Translations under genes and position numbers: made by a program
Shown here: positions 16,029-29,900 of the stretch, piece by piece
Numbering within the stretch: the first letter of the stretch is position 1
Layout: the number at the start of each line of letters is the position of its first letter
Origin: an uncultured Bacteroidales bacterium
Lineage (GTDB): Bacteria; Bacteroidota; Bacteroidia; Bacteroidales; UBA10428
Direction: 5' to 3'
NCBI GenBank assembly: GCA_964503885.1
Contig: CAZDCD010000008.1
Coordinates: forward strand, 82,088 to 146,087
Length of the DNA: 64,000 nucleotides
Notes under the pieces: model-generated
Told to the model about the DNA's origin: nothing
Database searches by the model: none
What the model saw: only the letters and a program-made list of their open reading frames with translations

Positions 16029-19000
16029 ATGCTGAAAGGAAAAATGTCACCCGTGGAAATGATTTCCTTTATTCGAGGAGCTAAGATCAACACCTGGTTT
16101 GATCTTGGCATTTATATCGACTGGATACGTGAAAACAGAGCTACTCCGGCAATTGAATTTTCAGGCAGCTATCATGAGTTTCTTGCTCAAGAGCTTCAAC
16201 ATGGTCTCGCTTTCATCACTTTCCAGTTTTCAGTAGATGGTGTAAGTATTGAAATTGAAAAGTATGCAAAGGTTTTTCGGGAACTGATTGACGGGGTGAA
16301 GATTCATTATATAGCCGGAAAATTCTATCCCGATTCAAAAAGGAATATTCATAGTGACACGTACAAATTTGAACTTCGGGAAATTCAGGGTTTCGACAAA
16401 TGGAAATATTACCGGGATTTTTATTTTACACGGCTGGAAAGGGGAGGAGCCAGGTATAATCGACTGATCAGTGATCTGTGGCGGGATGTACTTATCATTA
16501 CGGAAAAGCTTGCCCATTATATTTACGAGCATAAAATCAATCTTCTTTTTATGGTAAATGTATGTTCCAATCCGGGAAATATTTCATTGGCTCTGGCGCT
16601 TGTTCTTATCTCTGAACTCATGGGAATTCCGGTGATCAACAATAATCATGATTTTTACTGGGAAGGTGGCAATAATCCGGCAGAAATTGAATCCAAAGGG
16701 TTAAAACCCGGACCCAGAGATTTCTTTTTCACCAATTATCATATCGGAGAGATCTTCTCACTGATTGAAATATTATTTCCCTGGGAGTCACGATCGTGGA
16801 TAAATGTCAATATCAATTGCAGTCAGTCAAAGCACCTGATCGAAAAGAAAGGGCATAATCCCGCGAATGTCACCGAGATTTGTACAGCGGTTGATACGGA
16901 TAAATTTGTCAATATCAGCAAAAGAAATAAGATAAATGCGTTTTTTCAGTTTGAAAAAATTCTGAGCCGTTATGGTAAAACATTGATCAGTTATTCAGTA
17001 GCCGATGTGATAAACAATAAACTGGTGGATCAAAAGGATCCCCGGCCTATTTTGATTGGACTGAAAACCCAGCCGCTGGTGAAGTTTTTAACCGAAAATA
17101 TTATTTTTCTTCAACCCACCAGGGTTATTTCAAGAAAGAAAATAGAGCTTGGATTTAAGTTAATCAGGCACTTGTTCGGCAATTCAAGCTTCACCGACAG
17201 GTTTAAACACACACCAAATCTCAAGGTTACGATTCTGGTTACCGGCCCGATAGCATCAGGGCATTTTGATTATTTTCATAAACTGATTTCCGATTTTGCC
17301 AGTTTGCTTAAATCGCTTGATGTTTCTTTGCGTGAGCGTGTTTTTCTGGCATTTTTATACAGTGAACTTGATAAAGAAAACTTTAAAAACAGGTTTAAAG
17401 AACCTGTTGGAATTCCGGAACTTTACAATATTTCCTCGCTGGTGCTGCTTCCGAGCAGAACAGAAGGACGCGGGCTTCCGATTATAGAAGCATCTGCTTG
17501 CGGAACACCCATATTGTGCAGACGGTATTTTCCCGAAAACGTTTATTCAGAAGTAATAGGGGAGCAATTGCCTGAAAATGAACGGCTGAAAGTATTGGAA
17601 TTCAACGGGAAAAAAATAACTGCAAAACATGCATTCAAGGTTCTTGAACGGGTGTTGTTTCCGCATAAATTTACCCATGAGGTTCTTCATAACAAAATGG
17701 CAGTCCAAAAAAGATTTAGCCTTAAGGCATTAACAAAAAATATTGAAGACATTTTGCTGCAGACTTATCACCAGGTAAAAAGGAATGAAAATTCCATGCG
17801 GATTACAGGTGAAATGGTAAGAAAGTATCTTACCCTTAATAATCAGGAGATTCCGTTATTATATACCATACTGAAAACAGATAATAGACAGTATCTGGCA
17901 GGCTACGGAAAGTTAAAGTACATGCTAAACTTAAAATCCCTGATCGATCCGAGTGCATTCAGGAACGAAGAACAACAAATCAAGGGATATATTTTCTCAT
18001 ATGCCCAATCGCTGGTAAAAAAAGGGAATACCAAATTACTTAAACGAATTCACATATTTTATAATGCAGTCGCCAATATTTTTATCTATCGGAAAGGAAA
18101 AGTGAAAATCCGTCATGATCATTCCTTTGCATACAGGCACAGGAATGAAAACCATTATCCTTACCAGGAGTTTACCCTTCAGGAATTGACAGGGCTTGTT
18201 AACATGCTGTATATTAGATTAGTCGGAAATCATCCTTCAAGAAGGATTGATGAGAGTTCACATTTTTTTACCGACTGGGATCTTGCGTTGGGACAAATGA
18301 CATCGAGCATTTATATTGCGATTGACGACCGCAAGATACTGATCAATAAAATGCAGTCGAATGTACCCGTTGGAATTTTCCCAGGAGATTATGTGAAATA
18401 TGAGCTTGAATTTTTTGCATTGCAGGCAATACGCTCAAGATTAAAACTAAAGATCGAAGATGAGTTGACGGAAGATATGATACTGGAACATCGCGATACT
18501 CTTGCTAAAATTTATTTATTTGCCCAGTCAGTTACGATAGGACGCTGGTTTAATGTGGATGAGATAAAGGAGTATATTGAGCATGGGCATGAAAATGAAT
18601 TATTTCTGTTATATAAACACGGAGTACTAAGAATTATTGAGACCCACCAGTGGTGCCTGGGTATCCATTTTTGCCAGATCGGCGAAAATGCACTGAAGGC
18701 CCTGAATGCCATTCATGAGCAGGATGGTTTTATCATTTCAAGCAGAATCGATGCCGCCATGATGACCGATATTGTAGATCTCGATAAATTTCATATCGGA
18801 CAAGCCGGCGATCCGGTTACGGCCAGCATGATGGGTATCGACAAGGGTGCCGGCTATATTCAATTTGTACCTGCAGGTATCAGAACCACACTGGCGTATC
18901 CCACACCTGTGCAAACTGCCAGGGACTTTCACAAGACACTTCACAGTGAATCATTCAGGAAGTTCGAATTAAAATATGGTGAAAAATACCTGTTTGATTT

Positions 19001-20207
19001 CATAAAAAAGGAATCGGAAGAGAATGGAACACCTGTAAATCAAATTCTTAGAATGATCAATGATGACAAGTCAGAAATTTCGCCGATTGATAACGGGTTT
19101 ATAAACGGACTGTATGAAGATGGAAATCCTTACAGCGGAGCATACGCCAAAGTTCGCATGCACAAAAACAACGGAAAATGGATTTTCAGGACCATTTCAA
19201 CAATGTCCAGACCTATGCAGGTTACCGAATTTGTTAAAAATTTCGAATTTACCAGCGGCAATTCAGTAAATATAGCCTGGAACGGAGGGTATATTCTAAA
19301 TAATGAGCTTGTTGGAAAGCTGGGTTTACCAGAATCATATATTGGTTCACCGTTAGGATTGCTTATTTCTGAGGGTATTTTACTGTGTCCGCCTTTATTC
19401 AATAAAGCAGCCATGCTTGTTGGTGCCGATAGCAAGGTGACAATACGAAAAGTCAATGTAAGAAAAGGAATCATAATCCGATGCAAAGATACGATTCTGA
19501 AAATGAGTGCTGAGCAGTATAATTTGCCCTCTCCGCCTGAAGGAGTCCCATGTTATTATGATCTGCTTTTTCCGGGGAATGAACTCGTTTCGAAAAACAG
19601 GGTAATCATCAGGCTTGCAGGCAACAAAATTAAAGAAGTCATATGGCCGCAGAATTCGAACTATGTGCGGATTATACCGGTCGGATTAACCCTATCCCTT
19701 CCTCTTGATCAGGTTCATGATGATCTGCTAAAGATCGAGGAGGAAATTATCATTGAGGTTTCAGGACTTGAAAATATCGTTCATGCTACCGGAGCCGGTC
19801 CCTTGCTTGTAAACAACGGAAGAATCTCTATCAATATGAAAGATGAAGGGTGGATGAGTGTAAACTCCATCAATACTCAGGCTGCCAGAATTGATTATAC
19901 CAACATGAGGGGACCAAAGATTGCTGCCGGAATTGATGATCAGGGAAATATTATTGTATTGGCTATCAATGGCAGAATTCGTGAATCTGTTGGAGCAACT
20001 CATCACGAGATGGCAGAAATTCTAATCGGAATGGGTGTTCAATCTGCAATGGGTTTTGATCCCGGAGGGAGCAGTACCCTCGTGGCTAATCATGAAGTAT
20101 TGAACATATCTCCATATAATCCCGATTACGATAAAAATATATATGCATTGCCACCACAGCCACGAGCTGTATCAAATGCAATCCTCGGCTATTTTAAGCA
20201 TAAGTAA
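16029..20207 (+). CDS. Large fusion protein: MggS-like GT4 glycosyltransferase, uncharacterised middle domain, and C-terminal NAGPA-like phosphodiester glycosidase domain
   Basis: N-terminal VDGVSIEIEK, NHDFYWEG, QPTRVISRK, SRTEGRGLPIIEA (GT4 ExxGxxxxEA). C-terminal NGGYILN, GAGPLLVNNG, GPKIAAG, AINGR...SVGAT, GFDPGGSSTL (compare NAGPA LDGGGSS). Start could be a downstream Met. Confidence 0.8.
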   Translation: MLKGKMSPVEMISFIRGAKINTWFDLGIYIDWIRENRATPAIEFSGSYHEFLAQELQHGLAFITFQFSVDGVSIEIEKYAKVFRELIDGVKIHYIAGKFYPDSKRNIHSDTYKFELREIQGFDKWKYYRDFYFTRLERGGARYNRLISDLWRDVLIITEKLAHYIYEHKINLLFMVNVCSNPGNISLALALVLISELMGIPVINNNHDFYWEGGNNPAEIESKGLKPGPRDFFFTNYHIGEIFSLIEILFPWESRSWINVNINCSQSKHLIEKKGHNPANVTEICTAVDTDKFVNISKRNKINAFFQFEKILSRYGKTLISYSVADVINNKLVDQKDPRPILIGLKTQPLVKFLTENIIFLQPTRVISRKKIELGFKLIRHLFGNSSFTDRFKHTPNLKVTILVTGPIASGHFDYFHKLISDFASLLKSLDVSLRERVFLAFLYSELDKENFKNRFKEPVGIPELYNISSLVLLPSRTEGRGLPIIEASACGTPILCRRYFPENVYSEVIGEQLPENERLKVLEFNGKKITAKHAFKVLERVLFPHKFTHEVLHNKMAVQKRFSLKALTKNIEDILLQTYHQVKRNENSMRITGEMVRKYLTLNNQEIPLLYTILKTDNRQYLAGYGKLKYMLNLKSLIDPSAFRNEEQQIKGYIFSYAQSLVKKGNTKLLKRIHIFYNAVANIFIYRKGKVKIRHDHSFAYRHRNENHYPYQEFTLQELTGLVNMLYIRLVGNHPSRRIDESSHFFTDWDLALGQMTSSIYIAIDDRKILINKMQSNVPVGIFPGDYVKYELEFFALQAIRSRLKLKIEDELTEDMILEHRDTLAKIYLFAQSVTIGRWFNVDEIKEYIEHGHENELFLLYKHGVLRIIETHQWCLGIHFCQIGENALKALNAIHEQDGFIISSRIDAAMMTDIVDLDKFHIGQAGDPVTASMMGIDKGAGYIQFVPAGIRTTLAYPTPVQTARDFHKTLHSESFRKFELKYGEKYLFDFIKKESEENGTPVNQILRMINDDKSEISPIDNGFINGLYEDGNPYSGAYAKVRMHKNNGKWIFRTISTMSRPMQVTEFVKNFEFTSGNSVNIAWNGGYILNNELVGKLGLPESYIGSPLGLLISEGILLCPPLFNKAAMLVGADSKVTIRKVNVRKGIIIRCKDTILKMSAEQYNLPSPPEGVPCYYDLLFPGNELVSKNRVIIRLAGNKIKEVIWPQNSNYVRIIPVGLTLSLPLDQVHDDLLKIEEEIIIEVSGLENIVHATGAGPLLVNNGRISINMKDEGWMSVNSINTQAARIDYTNMRGPKIAAGIDDQGNIIVLAINGRIRESVGATHHEMAEILIGMGVQSAMGFDPGGSSTLVANHEVLNISPYNPDYDKNIYALPPQPRAVSNAILGYFKHK

Positions 20208-20253: not shown

Positions 20254-20292
20254 TAAAAAAATACCCCCGTCCAATTCATGAACAGGGGTATT
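20254..20292 (-). terminator. Probable intrinsic terminator downstream of the receiver-only gene
   Basis: AATACCCC (20260-20267) pairs with GGGGTATT (20285-20292). The adjacent A run gives a U tract on the minus strand. Confidence 0.5.
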
Positions 20293-20409: not shown

Positions 20410-20790
20410 TCAATATGAGTATTCTATTGAAATGGCTTTTTCCAGTGATTCTTTGCTGATCTCATCTTTAATGATGTAGCTTCGGGCGCCGGCTTCGATC
20501 ATCTGCACAATATATTTCATTTCGGAATGAAACGATACTGCCACGATCACCAGATTCCTGTAAAGCATTGTGGCTTCGCGTGTGGCTTCAATACCATTCA
20601 GACCGGGCATATTTATATCCATAAAAACAATGTCATACAATTTACTTTTAAGCACTTCCAGGCAATCCCTGCCGTCATTTACTGCACTGATGGTATCGAT
20701 TTTATCCTCAAAAGAATCTGTTAACATGAATTTTAATGCATTGCAGAAATGTGGATTATCATCTACTATCAATACTTTAAGCTTCTTCAT
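20410..20790 (-). CDS. Stand-alone response regulator receiver domain (NarL-type REC, no output domain)
   Basis: VLIVDD, FMDINMPGLNG (phospho-Asp), VAVSF, SYIIKD. Start set at ATG 20790 because the -7 element lies at 20806-20813. Confidence 0.9.
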   Translation of the reverse strand: MKKLKVLIVDDNPHFCNALKFMLTDSFEDKIDTISAVNDGRDCLEVLKSKLYDIVFMDINMPGLNGIEATREATMLYRNLVIVAVSFHSEMKYIVQMIEAGARSYIIKDEISKESLEKAISIEYSY

Positions 20791-20805: not shown

Positions 20806-20920
20806 CAAATATACCCGGTTTGCTTAATTTAAGATAGAGTTAATGTACGCAATTATAGGATTTTTCTACGTAAATTTTGAGGTAGTAAATACCTATATTG
20901 CTCTGAGTATTTTCCGACAT
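20806..20920 (-). promoter_or_regulatory. Promoter P1 with four-site regulator array (drives the receiver-only gene)
   Basis: -7 TATATTTG (rc, 20806-20813). Plus-strand TACGCAATT at offset 40, TACGTAAA at 61, TACCTA at 84, inverted GTATTTTCCGAC at 101. Confidence 0.7.
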
Positions 20921-21019
20921 GATGATAAAAGTGTACTGATTTTAATCCAGCTACTTAACCAATGAGAGTGTAAAATAAAAAAAGCATATAGTTACAGTTA
21001 AGGGTTTTATATAAAGTCA

Positions 21020-21048
21020 AACGGGATGTCATTTTTTGGCATCCCGTT
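21020..21048 (-). terminator. Hairpin ending the candidate sRNA
   Basis: AACGGGATGTCA-TTTTT-TGGCATCCCGTT (12 bp with one imperfect pair); the U tract is weak. Confidence 0.5.
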
Positions 21049-21142
21049 ATCCCACCTAAATCCAACCAAACCCTAAAACTAGCTAAACCCTTTTTAACTT
21101 TAAAAACCCTGTATTCTTAACACTTAAATATGAAAATCTTTA
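21020..21142 (-). ncRNA. Candidate ~120-nt small RNA with three AGGGUUU repeats
   Basis: Own -7 element (21148-21155) and regulator array, no credible ORF, AAACCCT x3 on the plus strand (21068, 21085, 21104), and a closing 12-bp hairpin at 21020-21048. The ends are estimates. Confidence 0.5.
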
Positions 21143-21147
21143 GGATA

Positions 21148-21262
21148 CAAAAATAAAGTGTATATGATGCTAAAATGATAGTGGAAATACCTAATTTTCA
21201 AGAAATATTACCCAAAACCCGGTAGGTAATAACCTCCATGAATATTGCGTATTTTCCGACAT
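21148..21262 (-). promoter_or_regulatory. Promoter P2 with four-site regulator array (drives the candidate sRNA)
   Basis: -7 TATTTTTG (rc, 21148-21155). TACCTAATT at offset 40, TACCCAAA at 61, AACCTC at about 83, and GTATTTTCCGACAT at 101 (14-bp identity with P1 at the same offset). Confidence 0.7.
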
Positions 21263-21558
21263 TATTTCCGTACTATTTTAAGCAATTCAAAGTTGCGGTT
21301 TTTCTTTTCTTCCAGAAACTCTCTGATATATTTATCATTCAATCCGTTTGAATATTTCTGGATCCGGATAATATCATCATTTATTTTTTGAACATCAGGT
21401 ATACCCGGATTGCTCACGAGAAGGCTGTTAAAATTCTTTTTAAGCAAATTCAAAATTTCCATTTTTGAATGATCCTTATTAGCCTTACTGAGCAAATGAA
21501 AAACCTCTCTTCTTATTTTATATGAAAGATCGTTATCGTATTGCACAAGCGCTTCCAT
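21262..21558 (-). CDS. Small hypothetical helical protein (98 aa)
   Basis: ATG-started ORF with a charged, amphipathic composition, preceded by promoter P3. No family recognised. Confidence 0.6.
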   Translation of the reverse strand: MEALVQYDNDLSYKIRREVFHLLSKANKDHSKMEILNLLKKNFNSLLVSNPGIPDVQKINDDIIRIQKYSNGLNDKYIREFLEEKKNRNFELLKIVRK

Positions 21559-21639
21559 AATGTTGATTCAAAAGTTGCCGCAGATAATGAAGTTAAGATT
21601 CCGTGTCAAATCCTTTTCGATATTCGTATTTTCTGCAAT

Positions 21640-21755
21640 CAAAATTAGTTCAACAATTATGGCAGAAGCACCGCGCTAACTACTCAATTTTCATGAAAAA
21701 ATACGCAAATATATCTGGCGGTTTTTACGCATAATATCATGTGTAAAAACCGCCA
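21640..21755 (-). promoter_or_regulatory. Promoter P3 with four-site regulator array (drives the 98-aa ORF)
   Basis: -7 TAATTTTG (rc, 21640-21647). TACTCAATT at offset 41, TACGCAAA at 62, TACGCA at 86, inverted GTAAAAACCGCC at 103. The last two form a near-perfect 17-bp inverted repeat at 21716-21755. Confidence 0.68.
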
Positions 21756-21835: not shown

Positions 21836-22471
21836 TCAGATGGAAACAAGCTTGTTCTTAATGGCATATACGACCAGACTGATCGAATTTTTTGATTCGG
21901 TTTTCTGCAATAAGCTTGATCGATGTCTTTCCACTGTTCGCTGACTGATGAACAGCGTATTGGAGATTTGCTGGTTTGAATACCCTTTGCAGATCAGTTC
22001 AAGCACTTCCTTTTCTCTCCGGGTTAAAGGGATAGCCTGATCAGATGATTTATCTTTAATCAGGTTAAGTAACAGTTCCTGTGAAAAAAAATTGCCGCCA
22101 TTGGTAACTTTGAGGATGGCATCGTGCAATTCATTGTTATCAATATCCTTCAGAATAAAGCCTTTAACACCCATATCAATCATTGTATTGTAATATTTGG
22201 TATCGCCAAACATAGATAGGACGAGGATGTTTAATTGCGGGTATTTCTGAAGTGCCAGTTGAGCTGCTTCAACGCCATTCATTACCGGCATATTGATATC
22301 CAGCAATACCACATCAGGAAGCCCATAAGTGAGAAGCTCGAGAAACTCTTTCCCGTTGGATGCTTCTCCTATTACTTCCAGGTCATCGGATTCGTTTAAA
22401 ATAAACTTTAAACCGCTTCTGAAAAGCTGGTGGTCATCCACGATAATTAGTTGCTTCCTTTTCATTGCCAT
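21836..22471 (-). CDS. NarL/FixJ-family DNA-binding response regulator (REC plus LuxR HTH)
   Basis: IVDDHQLFRSG, LLDINMPVMNG, GFILKD, LTRREKEVLELICKGYSNQQIS...RTVERHR. Confidence 0.95.
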   Translation of the reverse strand: MAMKRKQLIIVDDHQLFRSGLKFILNESDDLEVIGEASNGKEFLELLTYGLPDVVLLDINMPVMNGVEAAQLALQKYPQLNILVLSMFGDTKYYNTMIDMGVKGFILKDIDNNELHDAILKVTNGGNFFSQELLLNLIKDKSSDQAIPLTRREKEVLELICKGYSNQQISNTLFISQRTVERHRSSLLQKTESKNSISLVVYAIKNKLVSI

Positions 22472-22660: not shown

Positions 22661-25600
22661 TTAAACAGGAATATTCAATTCAAATGACATCCCTTTACCT
22701 GGTTCTGAAAGATAGGAATACCTTCCTTTTAAGGATCTTACGCGGCTTATAATATTTGAAATACCCATCCCGAGAGTAACTTTCTGATCGAAATTTACAT
22801 AATCAAAGCCAACGCCATTATCTTTAAAATTCAACCTGAGGTTTTTACCTTCGAGCACTATTCTTAATTGTATTTCTGCAGCTCCGGCATGTTTTATGGT
22901 ATTATTGATCAACTCTTTGATGATCCTGTATAATGAGGTTTCAATTTCATCTGAAAACCGGTTATCGGCAATGTTGCTTTGAAATTTGATAACTATGTGC
23001 TCTTCCACATTTCTGGCAAATGACTCTATGGATGCATAAAGGCCATAGTTTTTCAGAATGTGCGGGCTCAGATCATTTGAAATTTCTTTTGTGCTCTGAA
23101 TGGCTTCCTTAACAATTTCATTCAACTGGTCGATAATAAATTTCTGTTTTTCTATTTCCTGAATGCTATCAATGGTATTAACATACATTTTAATACTCGA
23201 CAGGAGAGGACCCAGATCGTCATGCAGGTTTTTAGCAAATTTTTCCCTTTCTTTTTCTTCTGTTCTTATTATTGCATCAAGTATTTTTTTCTCCATAAAT
23301 TTCATCTCGGTGATGTCTTCATAGGTGCCAAGAACTCCTATTGTACTCCCTGTAGCATTCTTAAGGGGAATTTTACTTGTTTTAAGCCATATCTTGTGAC
23401 CATCGGGTGTGGTTTGAGGTTCCTCATAATTCATGATTGAAACAGCATCTGACAATACCTTCCTGTCGTCGGCACGATACAGATCTGCCTCCGATTTCCA
23501 CGAAAGCTGGTAATCGTCCATTCCGATTATTTTAAACGGATCGTCAAAACCTGCATCCTGGGCAAAAAGTTTATTACAGCCAAGGTATTTGAATTCACTG
23601 TTTTTCCAAAATACCCTCACAGGAATTGTATTCAGGATTATCTGCAACATACTGTTGGCTTCAGCAAGCTGTGCTTCCCTTTCATATAGCGCGTTTTCAG
23701 CGGCTTTTCTGGAGGTAATATCCCGCACTATTGCCTGCAGGTATATTTCTCCGGAAAACTCAATTCTTTGTAAGGCAACTTCGGCATCGAAGTGCACCCC
23801 ATCGAATTTGATATGCTGCCATTCGAAAAACTGGGGAACCCCGTCATATGCCGCTTTAATTTTCTCCATACCTTTTTCAAGTGAATCTCTTCCGTCGGGT
23901 TGTTTCTGCGGTGAAAACCTGAACGGGGTCTGGTTAAGGATTTCTTCCCTACTGCACCCATACATTTTTAATGTTGCACTATTGCAATCCACAAACTTAT
24001 TTTCCTTCATCATAAAAATGGCATCGCTGGCAGATTCAAAGAGCAACCTGAATTTTTGTTCACTTTCCACAAGGGCTCTTTCAGATAGCTTTCTTTCGGT
24101 AATATCTCTGAATAATGCCTGTAAACGACCGTCTGCGAGCATTTTAGTGTTCATTTCCACTTCGATGCTTTTACCATCTTTTCGTGTAAGATACCGCTCA
24201 TTGATCACATTTTGGCCTGATCTTACAAGGTCATAGCGCAACGGTTTTGCTTTTATTTCATTATTCCGGAAAAGCATTTCGATTTTTTGGTTAATCAATT
24301 CGTTTTTTTCAAACCCCGATATTTTGCACATGCTTGAGTTTGCATTGGTAATGATACCATCTTCATTTCCCACAAGAATACCGTCGGCAGCCTGTTCGAA
24401 TAAAGTGCGGTATCGTTCCTCACTTTCCATCAAAGCATGTTGCGATAGTTTGCGTTCAGTTACTTCATAAACCGAAGCCAGGAGCTTTGAGGGATTCCCG
24501 TCTTTATTGTATTCAAAGATTATGGCCGAAACAGATACCCAGATCATTTTGTTATCTTTCCTTGTTAACCTGAGTTCAAACTCAAAGGTCTTGTCTTTCA
24601 CATTGTTTTTTAAACCTGAAACAGTATTGATTACCAGGTTAAAATCTTCAGGATGTATTATTTCTTTGAGATTATCTTTTAACCGGTATATCTCTTCACT
24701 GGTATAACCGGTTATACCAGTAATCTTTTCAGAGACATAAGAAATACTAAGGCATTCAAGATCGAAAATTACAAAAACAGTGGGCGAGGTATTTATAATA
24801 CCCTGCAGGTATTTATTTGTATTCTTCAGCTCTTCCTCGGCTTTAATTCGTTCCGATATATTTTCAAATGCCACTCCGACCCTGTTTCTTGGAAGTGGAA
24901 ATGCCTTGACTGAAAATGCTCCTGAAATGACCCTCTCATCGGAATAATAAATATCACTGATTTCAATGGGGATTTTTGTTTGAACGACATCGAAATATTT
25001 TTGCGGAATGCCTTTTTCACGCAGTCCCGGAAAATTCTCATCGAGTGTTTTTCCGATGATCTCACCAACCGGAACACCGGTTAATTTTTCTGTGGCAGGA
25101 TTTGCAGCGATCATCCTCAATGTTTTATTGTCGTCCGGATCCTCCAATTCATAGATATGAATTCCTGTCTGTATGTTTTCAAACAGGTCGGCTGCCTGCT
25201 GCAACACCTCTTCGGTCTTTTTTCTTTCGGAAATATCACGAATAACTGCCAAAACGCGCTTGCTACCTGCGATATGAGCACTTTTTAAGGATACTTCAGT
25301 CCAAAATGTTGACCCATCTTTTCTTTTACTCATCCACTTAAAAATCTGAGGCCGTTTGGTGGCTGCTTTTTTCACCAGGGCTAAAGCTTTCCTGCTGGTT
25401 TCTTCTGACTTTCCGGCGCTTAAATCGCCGGCCCGGTTGCCGATTATTTCGTCATAGCTGTAACCAAACATATCAAGAGTTGCCTTATTCACGTCAAGGA
25501 TTTTACCGGTATCGATCTCATGAATAAATATTGATTCCGATGTGGCGTTAAAGATCTCTCTATAATTCTGTTCACTTTTCATCAACGAGATCAGGGAATT

Positions 25601-26722
25601 CTTCCGGTTCAATGCATTGACGAATATCTGGCCGGCCATTTTTAGCAGGTAGAAATCAGTATCCGTCTTTTCAGATAATTTCTTCGTAGAATTAAAACAA
25701 AGCAGGGCCAGAGGAAAACCTTGCAGGGTGATTTGCATAATTATGCCTGCATTCAATCCCAGCTCTTTCATAGTGATTTTTAGTTTATTTGCTGTCTGGG
25801 GTATATGATTTAACGAAGGAATAAATACAATTTCATGATCAATCAATTCATTATTCATCCACGGGATTTCATCCGGATTTATCGAACACAATTTTTTAGT
25901 ATTAAAAGTTTCTTCCTTTTTAATCCATTGATGAGTGATCATAAACTTGTCATGCTCATAGTCAAACATCAGGATATGTCCTTCATCGCAATCTATAAAT
26001 CCGGCGATTTCACCAAGGGCCTTAACAATCTCGTTATCCACATTCTCAGGTGGAATATTAATAAATTGCGTGGATATCCCGGAAAGCAGTCTTTCAAAAT
26101 GATTCCTGTATAACAGATCGTTCTCGATTTTTTTTACAGCAGTTATATCTCTCTGTGTGCTCCAGATGCCGGTAAGTTTATTGCCGAGGATTATGCCTAC
26201 GGAATTGTTTAATATATACACCGTGTCTCCATCATCATTTACACTTTCCAAAAAAAGGTTCGTAATTTTATATCCTGAATGAACAAAATCTGTGATCAGT
26301 TTCTTTATATTACCGCAGTCTTCTTTTTTCAGGATTGTCCGGACAGGTGTGCCGATAAGATCTTCTTTATGCTTATACCCCAAACGTTGGGCATAAGCAA
26401 GGTTACATTCTGCAAAAAAACTTTCGTTAAAAATTTCCTGTACCTGTTTTTTTTCAGAATATTCAAGAGAGACAGGTTTCCCAAATTCAATCATGAATAT
26501 GGATTCACTGCTTCTTTCAACGAATATCCTGTATTTTGATTCACTCTGCTTCAATTCATTTGATCGTTCATTAACCAGCAGTTCGAGGTAGTCTCTGTAT
26601 TTCTCAAGTTCTTCCACGGAAAACGATCCGGCTTTTTTATGCCGCTTTTTCAACATTTGGTTTTCCTTTTCGAGAAATTTAATCCTTGAAGTCAGCTCTG
26701 AATAGGAAACTCGATTTTCCAT
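22661..26722 (-). CDS. Soluble multi-PAS/GAF sensor histidine kinase (HisKA_3 type)
   Basis: About seven PAS/PAC repeats ending in RDITERK-like motifs, one GAF-like segment, H box [35 protein letters not shown]. No transmembrane segment seen. Confidence 0.93.
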
Positions 26723-26840: not shown

Positions 26841-27971
26841 GTGGCTGGAATTTACATACATATACCGTTATGCAGAACAATCTGTCATTATTGTGATTTT
26901 TTCAGAACTACTGAAATTCACAGGAAAAATGAGCTGCTGGATTGTATGTTAAAAGAGCTGGAAATTACCCATGATTTTCTTGAAAATGAGCCTGTAAATA
27001 CCATTTACTTTGGTGGGGGCACGCCATCTGTGCTTACCGGTCATGAAATCAGCCTGTTGACTGAACAGGTAATTGCCATGCACCCTGTTACTGACAATGC
27101 TGAAATAACGCTGGAAGCAAATCCGGATGATCTTACTGATGACTATCTGAAGAGGCTAAAGGATAATACAAGAATTAACAGGTTGAGCATTGGGATACAA
27201 TCATTCATCGACCGTGATCTGAAACTGATGAACCGGAGACATAATGCCGGAAAGGCCCGGGAATCTGTAAACAACAGTCTTGCTTTGGGTTTTTCAAATA
27301 TCAGCATTGACCTGATCTATGGAATACCGGGAATGTCGCTTGCAGATTGGGAATATTCATTAAAAAAAGCATTTTCACTAAGGATCAGCCATCTTTCCGC
27401 GTATCACTTAACCATAGAAAAGGGAACGGTATTCTATGATCTCATGTGTCAAAACAAACTCAGTAAGGAAAGCGAGGACGACAGCCTTGATCAGTTTCGC
27501 ATGTTGATAAAAACTGCTCGCCGATATGATTTTATGCAGTACGAAATATCCAATTTCGCCAGGGATGGCATGTATTCGGTGCATAACTCAAATTACTGGA
27601 AAAGGGTAAAATACCTTGGCATCGGACCTTCGGCACATTCTTATAATATTGGCAGCAGACGCTGGAATGTATCCGATAACCACGAATATATAAGTAAAAT
27701 TACTCGGGGTGAACCTTTTTTCGAATCCGAAATACTCGATGAAACAACCCGTTACAATGAATATGTCATGACCGGTTTGCGCACGATGTGGGGGATCAAA
27801 CTGAATGAAGTGCATGCCATTTTTGGTCAGAAATTCTATGATCACCTGCTTACCGGTTTACAAAAATTTCTTTCAGGGGGAGAGGTGACAGAGAACGGAG
27901 AGGTGCTTTTGCTATCAGAAAAAGGCAAGTTTATTTCTGACTACATTATTTCAGAATTGCTTGTTACGTAA
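26841..27971 (+). CDS. hemW: Radical SAM family heme chaperone HemW (HemN-like)
   Basis: GIYIHIPLCRTICHYCDF, YFGGGTPS, EANP, SIGIQSF, DLIYGIP, YEISNFA, HNSNYW. GTG start. Confidence 0.9.
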   Translation: MAGIYIHIPLCRTICHYCDFFRTTEIHRKNELLDCMLKELEITHDFLENEPVNTIYFGGGTPSVLTGHEISLLTEQVIAMHPVTDNAEITLEANPDDLTDDYLKRLKDNTRINRLSIGIQSFIDRDLKLMNRRHNAGKARESVNNSLALGFSNISIDLIYGIPGMSLADWEYSLKKAFSLRISHLSAYHLTIEKGTVFYDLMCQNKLSKESEDDSLDQFRMLIKTARRYDFMQYEISNFARDGMYSVHNSNYWKRVKYLGIGPSAHSYNIGSRRWNVSDNHEYISKITRGEPFFESEILDETTRYNEYVMTGLRTMWGIKLNEVHAIFGQKFYDHLLTGLQKFLSGGEVTENGEVLLLSEKGKFISDYIISELLVT

Positions 27972-29549: not shown

Positions 29550-29900
29550 TCAGCCTGTAACTGTTACGCTTACAGAATCCATAATGCCTCCCATCGGAGG
29601 ATTTAGCTTGGAGACTTTTACAGTAATGGAACTGATATTATTAAAATTAAGGTGGATTGCATCAATTATACGTTGTGCAATGTTTTCTAAAAGATGTGAT
29701 TTATTTTTCATCTCACCCTTCACAATATCGTATATCGAACAGTAATTTATGGTATCTTCGAGTTTATCTGAACCTGCGGCCTTCTTTAGATCGGCTTCAA
29801 TGGTAAGATTTACCCTGAATTTATTCCCGATTTTTTGCTCTTCTTCAAAATGCCCGTGGTAAGCATAGAATTCCATATTTTCAAGATGTATCAATCCCAT
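29550..29900 (-). CDS. folB: Dihydroneopterin aldolase
   Basis: FYAYHG, EQKIGNKF, DTINY, LLENIA, VSKLNPPMGG. Confidence 0.95.
   Translation of the reverse strand: MGLIHLENMEFYAYHGHFEEEQKIGNKFRVNLTIEADLKKAAGSDKLEDTINYCSIYDIVKGEMKNKSHLLENIAQRIIDAIHLNFNNISSITVKVSKLNPPMGGIMDSVSVTVTG

Follow-up and report, generated by a model that had tools for sequence, protein, structure and literature searches.

We analysed a stretch of 64,000 nucleotides from an uncultured Bacteroidales bacterium (referred to below as the window; both strands were covered and coordinates follow whole-window numbering), in which a two-component gene pair is followed by three promoters of one common layout that would together form a conserved signalling module. 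The window has a G+C content of 38.5%, the region is AT-rich, and the genes and arrays of the module all lie on the minus strand. Read along that strand, the module starts with a soluble sensor histidine kinase of 1353 amino acids (22661..26722), in which Pfam recognizes multiple PAS domains, HisKA_3 and HATPase_c, and continues with a NarL/FixJ-family response regulator of 211 amino acids (21836..22471), which consists of a receiver and a GerE/LuxR helix-turn-helix domain and has its predicted phospho-acceptor at Asp58. Three arrays of half-sites follow, each upstream of a -7 box that matches TAnnTTTG. Array P3 (21681..21755), with the -7 box TAATTTTG (21640..21647), precedes a gene for a 98-amino-acid protein (21262..21558); array P2 (21188..21261), with TATTTTTG (21148..21155), precedes a predicted small RNA (sRNA) of ~130 nt (21011..21143, both ends predicted); and array P1 (20846..20919), with TATATTTG (20806..20813), precedes a receiver-only response regulator of 126 amino acids (20410..20790). 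A preliminary description of this DNA had named the same three outputs, which are found as it claimed.

The three boxes conform to the -7 element of the Bacteroidetes sigma factor sigma-ABfr, for which the consensus is TAnnTTTG (PMC7366714). Upstream of them, half-sites recur at nearly constant offsets, and every element that had been listed before, namely the minus-strand boxes at 20806, 21148 and 21640 and their half-sites, lies where it was placed. Site 1 follows the pattern AATTnnGTA in all three promoters, its last A being at offset 40/41 from the -7 box (AATTGCGTA at 20854-20846 in P1, AATTAGGTA at 21196-21188 in P2 and AATTGAGTA at 21689-21681 in P3). Site 2 follows the pattern TTTnnGTA at offset 61/62 (TTTACGTA at 20874-20867 in P1, TTTGGGTA in P2 and TTTGCGTA at 21709-21702 in P3) and sits 21 bp upstream of site 1 in each case, which bears out the period of ~21 bp noted previously. 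Near offset 100, each promoter has a distal TGNCGGWWWWTACNCA box, or TGNCGGWWWWTAC box (TGTCGGAAAATACTCA at 20919-20904, TGTCGGAAAATACGCA at 21261-21246 and TGGCGGTTTTTACACA at 21755-21740 in P1, P2 and P3, respectively). A third site and an inverted fourth one had also been proposed; together these do make up a 7-6-7 inverted repeat, one arm each (TACnCAn-N6-nTGnGTA), with the correction that site 3 is degenerate in P2. In P1, this distal repeat reads TGTCGGAAAATACTCAG-AGCAAT-ATAGGTA (20919-20890). Site 2 of P1 and P2 has an inverted TAC partner as well, the C of which is at offset 79 in P1 (TAC at 20887-20885) and at offset 78 in P2, where a 7-6-7 palindrome reads TACCTAC-CGGGTT-TTGGGTA (21228-21209). 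The distal palindrome of P3 is extended, TGGCGGTTTTTACACAT-GATATT-ATGCGTAAAAACCGCCA (21755-21716), with 17 paired bases per arm, and is near-perfect over 40 nt. Folded as RNA it reaches -26.2 kcal/mol (z = -7), and it starts ~80 nt past the stop codon of the regulator gene. It may double as a terminator or stabilizer of the kinase-regulator mRNA. Extensions of this kind, CGGWWWWTAC...GTAWWWWCCG, also occur directly behind the regulator gene in the related loci L005-L007, L089 and L161.

The position of the arrays relative to the core promoter suggests how they might act. At the -33 position, in the interval of 17-23 bp before the -7 box, TTTG is absent from all three promoters; related promoters carry CcCtT there, and the downstream end of the array coincides with the expected position of the -33 element. 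The missing -33 TTTG fits a dependence on an activator. One could also speculate that the regulator binds these arrays and represses or loops the promoters. NarL, after all, also represses some promoters, the -7 boxes are perfect matches to the consensus and might not need an activator, and multiple phased sites over ~65 bp could wrap or loop the DNA. However, all predicted sites lie between ~-44 and ~-110, upstream of the core promoter, and none overlaps a -7 box or start; together with the absent -33 element, this makes repression or looping very unlikely in our view. The proximal site abuts the -33 region, just as NarL site II abuts the -35 element at ogt (PMC7419079), an arrangement that again argues for activation.

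The window contains 71 TAnnTTTG boxes, and a GTA at each of the two offsets is found with these three alone; the 29-nt composite TTTNNGTA-N12-AATTNNGTA finds three exact matches, against 0.27 expected even if one mismatch is allowed. Since such patterns were derived from the window itself, evidence was sought outside it. A search of GTDB genomes with the regulator gave three Bacteroidales metagenome-assembled genomes (MAGs), L005-L007, in which kinase, regulator, array, an intergenic element and the receiver-only gene are all present, with regulators 62-63% and the receiver-only gene 74% identical to those of the window. The intergenic element shares with the predicted sRNA a stretch of 20 nt, GGGTTTGGTTGGATTTAGGT, at 100% identity and within different flanks, and a scan of JGI metagenomes for this exact 20-mer returned 85 stretches (one of which, L099, is the window sequence). 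By taking the nearest TAnnTTTG upstream of each copy, we obtained 67 distinct promoters from outside the window that were thus selected via the RNA core only. Aligned on the -7 box, they have GT[AG] at offset 40 in 56 of 67 cases (84%) and at offset 61/62 in 57 (85%), TAC at offset 78/79 in 52 (78%) and CGG at offset 85/86 in 41, while in a control of 468 -7 boxes GTA occupies a mean of 1.6% of offsets. From the 67 promoters we built a weight matrix (offsets 92-27, the -7 box being excluded), which, run over both strands of the window, ranked P3 first (26.5 bits), P2 second (26.4 bits) and P1 fourth (12.7 bits) among 128,000 positions, against a background of -45.9 +/- 14.2 bits. The match at rank 3 (29832, 16.2 bits) lies inside an unannotated open reading frame (ORF) of 116 amino acids (29550-29900) and has no -7 box, and was therefore treated as a false positive.

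These comparisons bear on a further objection, which is that the likeness of the promoters is left over from a local duplication and has no regulatory meaning. P1 and P2 do share a 20-nt stretch at 90% identity, and all three arrays fall within 1 kb. Yet it is the half-sites and their spacing alone that are conserved, the spacers being different; the same positions are conserved in the 67 promoters of other organisms; and a matrix trained on outside sequences picks out all three arrays. We regard the duplication as already contradicted by this conservation across species and give it next to no weight.

Under a strict rule that required a -7 box together with a pair of GTR half-sites and a TAC, each at its expected offset, 82 arrays were detected in 1.09 Mb comprising both strands of the window and the loci, and all 82 precede an sRNA, a receiver-only gene, a gene for an accessory protein of 104-133 amino acids or the 98-amino-acid gene. 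The consensus of 72 arrays reads TGtCGGtaAATAC.cAtaT.AAAtTG.GTA, followed after ~12 nt by aaAatTTaAGTA.TTtttCcCtT, or in short TGtCGGtaAATACnCA-N8-TGnGTA with a direct half-site AAAWTTRAGTA 21 bp downstream. A T at the fifth position upstream of the A in GTA, which had no part in the selection, is present in 72 of 72 arrays at site 1 and in 70 of 72 at site 2; the half-site is therefore best written T[G/A]nGT[A/G], the reverse complement of TACn[C/T]A. Roughly a quarter of the arrays, including all three of the window, have a further distal unit, and there is a conserved TGTCGG flank, which is asymmetric. Column composition is sufficient to account for all of the complementarity of the palindrome arms, in which no covariation was detected, and the element thus behaves as a protein-binding site and not as a conserved RNA helix.

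The arrangement of the genes is conserved along with the arrays. The order kinase, regulator, array, sRNA and receiver recurs across ~80 distinct metagenome and MAG loci; in 38 of the 53 loci with enough flanking sequence the regulator gene lies immediately upstream in the same orientation, and a receiver-only gene follows the sRNA within 700 nt in 49 of 60. The closest relative, L169 (identity of 86% for the regulator, 86% for the receiver and 67% for the kinase), has three arrays in the order of the window, the first before an accessory protein gene and the 98-amino-acid gene, the second before the sRNA and the third before the receiver. On a 6.2-Mb contig, L166 mirrors the wider synteny, with a divergent HemN-like gene and a convergent gene for a glycosyltransferase/NAGPA protein of 1395 amino acids; there, sRNA and receiver gene are each preceded by an array. 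The arrays before the receiver gene in L166 and L169 are orthologous to P1.

The regulator has the Pfam domains Response_reg (2.6e-26, residues 9-119) and GerE (1.5e-17, residues 148-203), and its sequence shows the acidic pocket of Asp12 and Asp13 together with Asp58. VraR, DesR, NarL and DevR, which it matches over its full length, are the nearest solved structures, and on these grounds we assign it to the NarL/VraR/DesR family. The adjacent kinase possesses, besides HATPase_c, the HisKA_3 domain that characterizes partners of NarL/FixJ regulators, and orthologues of it lie upstream of the regulator in most of the related loci. In a Marinilabiliaceae MAG (L011, 6880-8441), a paralogous pair is followed by TGTCGGAAAATACCCAT...ATGGGTA...ATTGGGTA before a cstA-family gene. 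The regulator of this pair is 53% identical to that of the window, and the kinase of the pair carries a periplasmic ABC_sub_bind sensor; the spacer of the inverted repeat is N7, compared with N8 between the hexamers in the window and in the consensus. Sensor and target both differ while the array is kept, which indicates that the array follows the regulator subfamily.

The middle output had been taken for an sRNA in the preliminary description, and the invariant seed and terminator that we find agree with this. In the window, the transcript would comprise a variable 5' part, the invariant seed (21073-21054), a hairpin (21047-21021) and a T-rich tail. The exact seed, present in the 85 metagenome stretches and the three MAGs, is invariant in 97 copies and stays unchanged even where the regulators of two lineages share no more than 54-75% identity. 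Directly 3' of the seed, each of the 80 distinct copies has a hairpin of -14 to -25 kcal/mol. Among these hairpins there are 25 different stem starts, and in 59 of the 80 at least five of the next eight bases are T, as is characteristic of an intrinsic terminator on the sRNA strand. The hairpins were folded sequence by sequence, as MAFFT and RNAalifold misaligned these variable structures. The 5' part varies in both sequence and length, leaving 37-143 nt between -7 box and seed, and the family comprises at least four subfamilies. The seed region contains stop codons and no start codon, and the copy in the window has its own -7 box and array. Three GGA motifs only are present in the sRNA, the conserved part of which is a single unpaired stretch of 20 nt. 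Immediately 5' of the invariant seed, at 21090-21071, there is a degenerate second seed, GGGTTTAGCTAGTTTTAGGG, with five mismatches.

The number and setting of the sRNA genes differ considerably between lineages. Two or three tandem copies are found in single contigs (L113:420-1300, L134:2577-2790, L120:9729-9940, L086:594-1024, L158/L165 and L159). Those in L113, L086, L158/L165 and L159 are several hundred nt apart and most have their own promoter (L113 has three arrays), and in L134 and L120 two copies 114 nt apart lie behind one array; sRNA copy number thus varies between lineages, as it does with Qrr and Rsm. In L138 (8457-9051, minus strand), seed and terminator are located ~10 nt past the stop codon of a sigma-70-family gene (Sigma70_r4, 2e-14). 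This copy has no array and looks like a member of the sRNA family derived from a 3' untranslated region (UTR). Diverged paralogues with altered or shortened seeds (e.g. AGGGTTTGGTTAGTTTAGGG) followed by terminators occur at L135:~2679 and L159:~912 (on the strand opposite to the listed match), so that the exact-match scan underestimates the size of the family.

While a trans-acting RNA is what these features suggest, the seed and terminator could also serve mainly in cis, as a leader or attenuator that controls read-through into the receiver gene. Such a function would suit the L005-type loci, the largest subfamily, where the receiver gene starts ~130-200 nt past the terminator and has no array of its own, and the frequent presence of a receiver gene downstream (the 49 of 60 loci mentioned above). 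It is difficult to reconcile with the receiver gene having a full array and -7 box of its own in the window, in L166, in L169 and in at least ten other loci, with tandem sRNA copies that each have their own array (the three of L113; L086, L158 and L159), with copies that have no receiver gene nearby (L084, L090, L092, L121 and L135), or with the copy in the 3' UTR of the sigma-70 gene in L138. Moreover, a 20-nt sequence that stays invariant across lineages while the terminators differ is typical of a trans-acting seed. A mainly cis-acting role hence seems unlikely to us, and the RNA is most likely a trans-acting, base-pairing regulator and the real output of the pathway. Neither the whole window searched against Rfam 15 at the gathering score nor positions 20900-21300 searched by cmscan at E <= 10 gave a match for it beyond chance level, and the sRNA appears to represent a family outside the current Rfam collection and a candidate new RNA family.

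The proteins behind the other two arrays are of different kinds. For the 98-amino-acid protein, a homologue located via synteny in L169 aligns at 38% identity across the full length of 98 residues (E 9e-21), which shows that the ORF in the window is a real gene. A word-indexed homology search returned only truncated copies of the protein itself, and Pfam gave no match; the gene is, as far as these searches indicate, narrowly distributed. The protein belongs to no known family and is predicted to be all helical, AlphaFold2 run on the sequence without an alignment giving a model with a predicted local distance difference test score (pLDDT) of 53, too poor for a fold search. Several lineages have, between regulator and sRNA and behind its own array, a gene for an unrelated accessory family of 104-133 amino acids (MExF/MINxFIV...; L086:1515, L153:1372, L155:1877, L158:3089, L165:1452, L149:13035-13367 and L169:5589-5990), for which neither Pfam nor the PDB has a match and which is absent from the window. 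Judging by the order of genes in L169, the window has lost the accessory gene, and the 98-amino-acid gene was left directly behind P3.

The receiver-only protein matches Response_reg over residues 6-120 of its 126 (Pfam, 6e-24), and its catalytic residues appear intact, with Asp10/Asp11, the predicted phospho-acceptor Asp58, the Ser in VAVSFH and the Lys in YIIKD all readable from the sequence. Homologues support a start at ATG 20790 and not at TTG 20808, as in the mechanical ORF call of 132 amino acids, which overlaps the -7 box of P1; the ATG leaves a 5' UTR of ~10 nt. At E <= 1e-30 the family numbers 332 protein clusters, nearly all of them 126 amino acids long among the 120 listed, and wherever the source names a taxon, it is a MAG of the Bacteroidales or Bacteroidota. 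The protein would most likely act as a competing phospho-acceptor.

Around the module, the window contains some further features. A terminator-like hairpin with a T run (20260..20292, minus strand) lies 3' of the receiver-only gene and faces a convergent gene on the plus strand (16029-20207) for a protein of 1392 amino acids, which has a GT4-type glycosyltransferase region and a C-terminal NAGPA (phosphodiester glycosidase) domain; the synteny of this gene is conserved in L166. On the other side, a HemN-like radical-SAM gene (26841-27971, plus strand) is divergent from the kinase gene. The HemN-like neighbourhood is kept in L166-L168, and L005 and L001 have a divergent ORF of equal size (376/384 amino acids), the HemN identity of which was not checked by Pfam. 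Such a neighbour may be a clue that the PAS kinase works in an oxygen or redox context.

Taken together, we interpret the locus as a conserved Bacteroidales signalling module in which the phosphorylated regulator activates a compact regulon at the arrays, and estimate the probability of this interpretation at roughly 0.7 (0.72). The soluble multi-PAS HisKA_3 kinase would phosphorylate the adjacent NarL/LuxR-type regulator at Asp58, and dimers of the regulator would then occupy one or two 7-6-7 inverted repeats and the direct half-site located two helical turns (21 bp) downstream. From the proximal half-site, the regulator would recruit RNA polymerase containing the primary Bacteroidetes sigma factor to TAnnTTTG promoters that lack a -33 element. 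What the comparisons show is the architecture of the sequence together with its statistical specificity, its conservation and its linkage to this regulator subfamily; we infer the binding and activation, like the transcription starts, from the DNA sequence. Of the three predicted outputs, the 98-amino-acid helical protein would represent the small proteins. The sRNA, with its single-stranded, G/U-rich seed of 20 nt before an intrinsic terminator, would be the main effector of the pathway, and the receiver-only protein would most likely compete for the phosphoryl groups of the kinase, as a phosphate sink or feedback branch.

A number of observations weigh against this interpretation. Neither the region upstream of the kinase gene nor the spacer between kinase and regulator contains an array, and autoregulation is accordingly not supported. 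The sRNA has no target that we could detect in the window or the loci: at the 5' regions of 60 ORFs in the window, the duplex energies were equalled by 27 of 100 shuffled seeds, and the 1.09 Mb of loci contain 25 seed-complement 10-mers against 17.7 expected. A 13-nt complementary match in L084 was considered as a target and dismissed, as it is not at a credible gene start. The four MAG loci of the genome collection whose regulators come closest to that of the window (L001-L004, 70-73% identity) lack both array and sRNA within ~10 kb, and across L001-L004 and L008-L016 (regulators of 43-73% identity) arrays or sRNA are absent within the loci, the array of L011 being the sole exception. Conversely, the sRNA subfamily of L149 has an accessory-sRNA-receiver cassette away from any regulator gene. 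NarL sites contain nothing that corresponds to the TGTCGG flank, which could be the site of a different factor, and the operator spacing is 7-6-7 and not the 7-2-7 of NarL.

Several of these points could also be explained if the arrays are genuine and bound by some other factor, such as an unlinked LuxR-type paralogue or a protein recognizing the TGTCGG flank, the regulator being associated with them by synteny only. A regulon without an adjacent regulator, as in L149 and related loci, is what one would then expect, regulators such as those of L001-L004 would have no arrays nearby, and the asymmetric flank, which a NarL-like dimer does not explain, would be accounted for. On the other hand, the regulator gene is directly upstream in most of the informative loci (38 of 53), the paralogous regulator of L011 again immediately precedes an array, this time before a different target, the half-site resembles the NarL heptamer, and no other DNA-binding gene is consistently part of the module. 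We therefore consider a separate factor improbable. The situations in L001-L004 and in L149 both fit an unlinked arrangement of one system, and the earlier proposal of a compact regulon tied to the adjacent regulator finds support in the comparative evidence (the 67 promoters, the 82 arrays, the 38 of 53 loci, L169 and L011).

More tentatively, and with a probability that we would place slightly below even, the module could act as a master switch of environmental Bacteroidales in the style of Gac/Rsm or Qrr. Kinase and regulator would then serve mainly to transcribe the sRNA, which, given its invariant seed, would control a conserved post-transcriptional regulon, and the co-induced receiver would be a sink that makes the response transient. 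Very few Bacteroidota sRNAs have a known transcriptional regulator, and the phylum is not known to have Hfq, ProQ or CsrA. Against this background, the locus offers a complete candidate circuit, with sensor, regulator, defined operator motif, sRNA of invariant seed and putative feedback receiver, found in hundreds of uncultured Bacteroidales of sediments and wetlands. The operator motif can be used for genome-wide prediction of the regulon, the sRNA is a candidate Rfam family, and the promoters suggest a compact, activator-dependent design for the TAnnTTTG class. The cstA gene behind the array of the L011 paralogue is a hint that nutrient or carbon-starvation signalling may be involved. Both Bacteroidota RNA biology and the field of two-component signalling should find the system of interest. 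That no description of such a circuit was known had been remarked before, and none was found in Rfam or in a limited full-text search of the literature with the seed sequence and keywords; judging by these searches, neither the circuit nor its operator and sRNA family appear to have been described.

At the level of the promoter, the proposed system would work like NarX/NarL of E. coli. NarL binds 7-base elements with a TAC core, either singly or in inverted repeats, and at ogt it activates from -44.5 and -77.5 (PMC7419079). The kinase and regulator families are common to both systems, as is the use of TAC-core half-sites in inverted repeats and singly, with one of them abutting the -35 or -33 element and others farther upstream. 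The half-site derived from the 72 arrays, TAC[C/G/T][C/T]A[T/A], agrees with the NarL heptamer TACYYMT, sites of the TACCCAT type being common. In contrast to the 7-2-7 sites of NarL, the repeats described here are 7-6-7, with hexamers 8 bp apart, and are accompanied by an additional direct half-site, located exactly 21 bp downstream, as well as by the conserved TGTCGG flank. The promoters are of the Bacteroidetes TAnnTTTG type, the kinase is a soluble multi-PAS protein and not a periplasmic nitrate sensor, and the predicted regulon is tiny and centred on an sRNA.

In this last respect the module is reminiscent of GacS/GacA-RsmX/Y/Z (BarA/UvrY-CsrB/C), where sRNA genes are the main direct outputs of GacA, each behind a conserved palindromic upstream activating sequence (PMC2375449). 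Here, too, a regulator of the NarL/FixJ family is associated with a palindromic site before sRNA genes whose copy number varies between lineages. The operator sequence, however, is another than the GacA box; the kinase has no receiver or Hpt domain that Pfam could detect, only PAS, HisKA_3 and HATPase_c, and is thus not of the unorthodox type; one long, invariant, single-stranded seed takes the place of many GGA loops that titrate CsrA/RsmA; and the regulon also includes a receiver-only protein and small proteins.

Another system with a comparable circuit is LuxO-Qrr of Vibrio. There, one or several paralogous sRNAs are under the control of a response regulator, each copy having its own regulator site, and the Qrr sRNAs share an invariant stretch of ~20-30 nt just before the terminator. 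Paralogous sRNAs that appear to be driven by a regulator and an invariant stretch before the terminator are what the two systems have in common. LuxO, however, is a sigma-54 activator of the NtrC type and has no LuxR-type helix-turn-helix, there is no sequence relationship, and the phylum is another.

Within the Bacteroidota, the sRNAs GibS and FopS of Bacteroides thetaiotaomicron have a conserved single-stranded seed and a Rho-independent terminator, are multicopy in some genomes and are transcribed from sigma-ABfr promoters, the inducing transcription factor being unknown (PMC11697453). Conserved seed and terminator are shared with the sRNA described here. While FopS has its seed at the 5' end, that of the present family comes after a variable 5' part and directly before the terminator; and while FopS and GibS are in Rfam, this sRNA has no match there even at E <= 10. 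What further sets it apart from both is that a dedicated regulator and an operator can be recognized for it.

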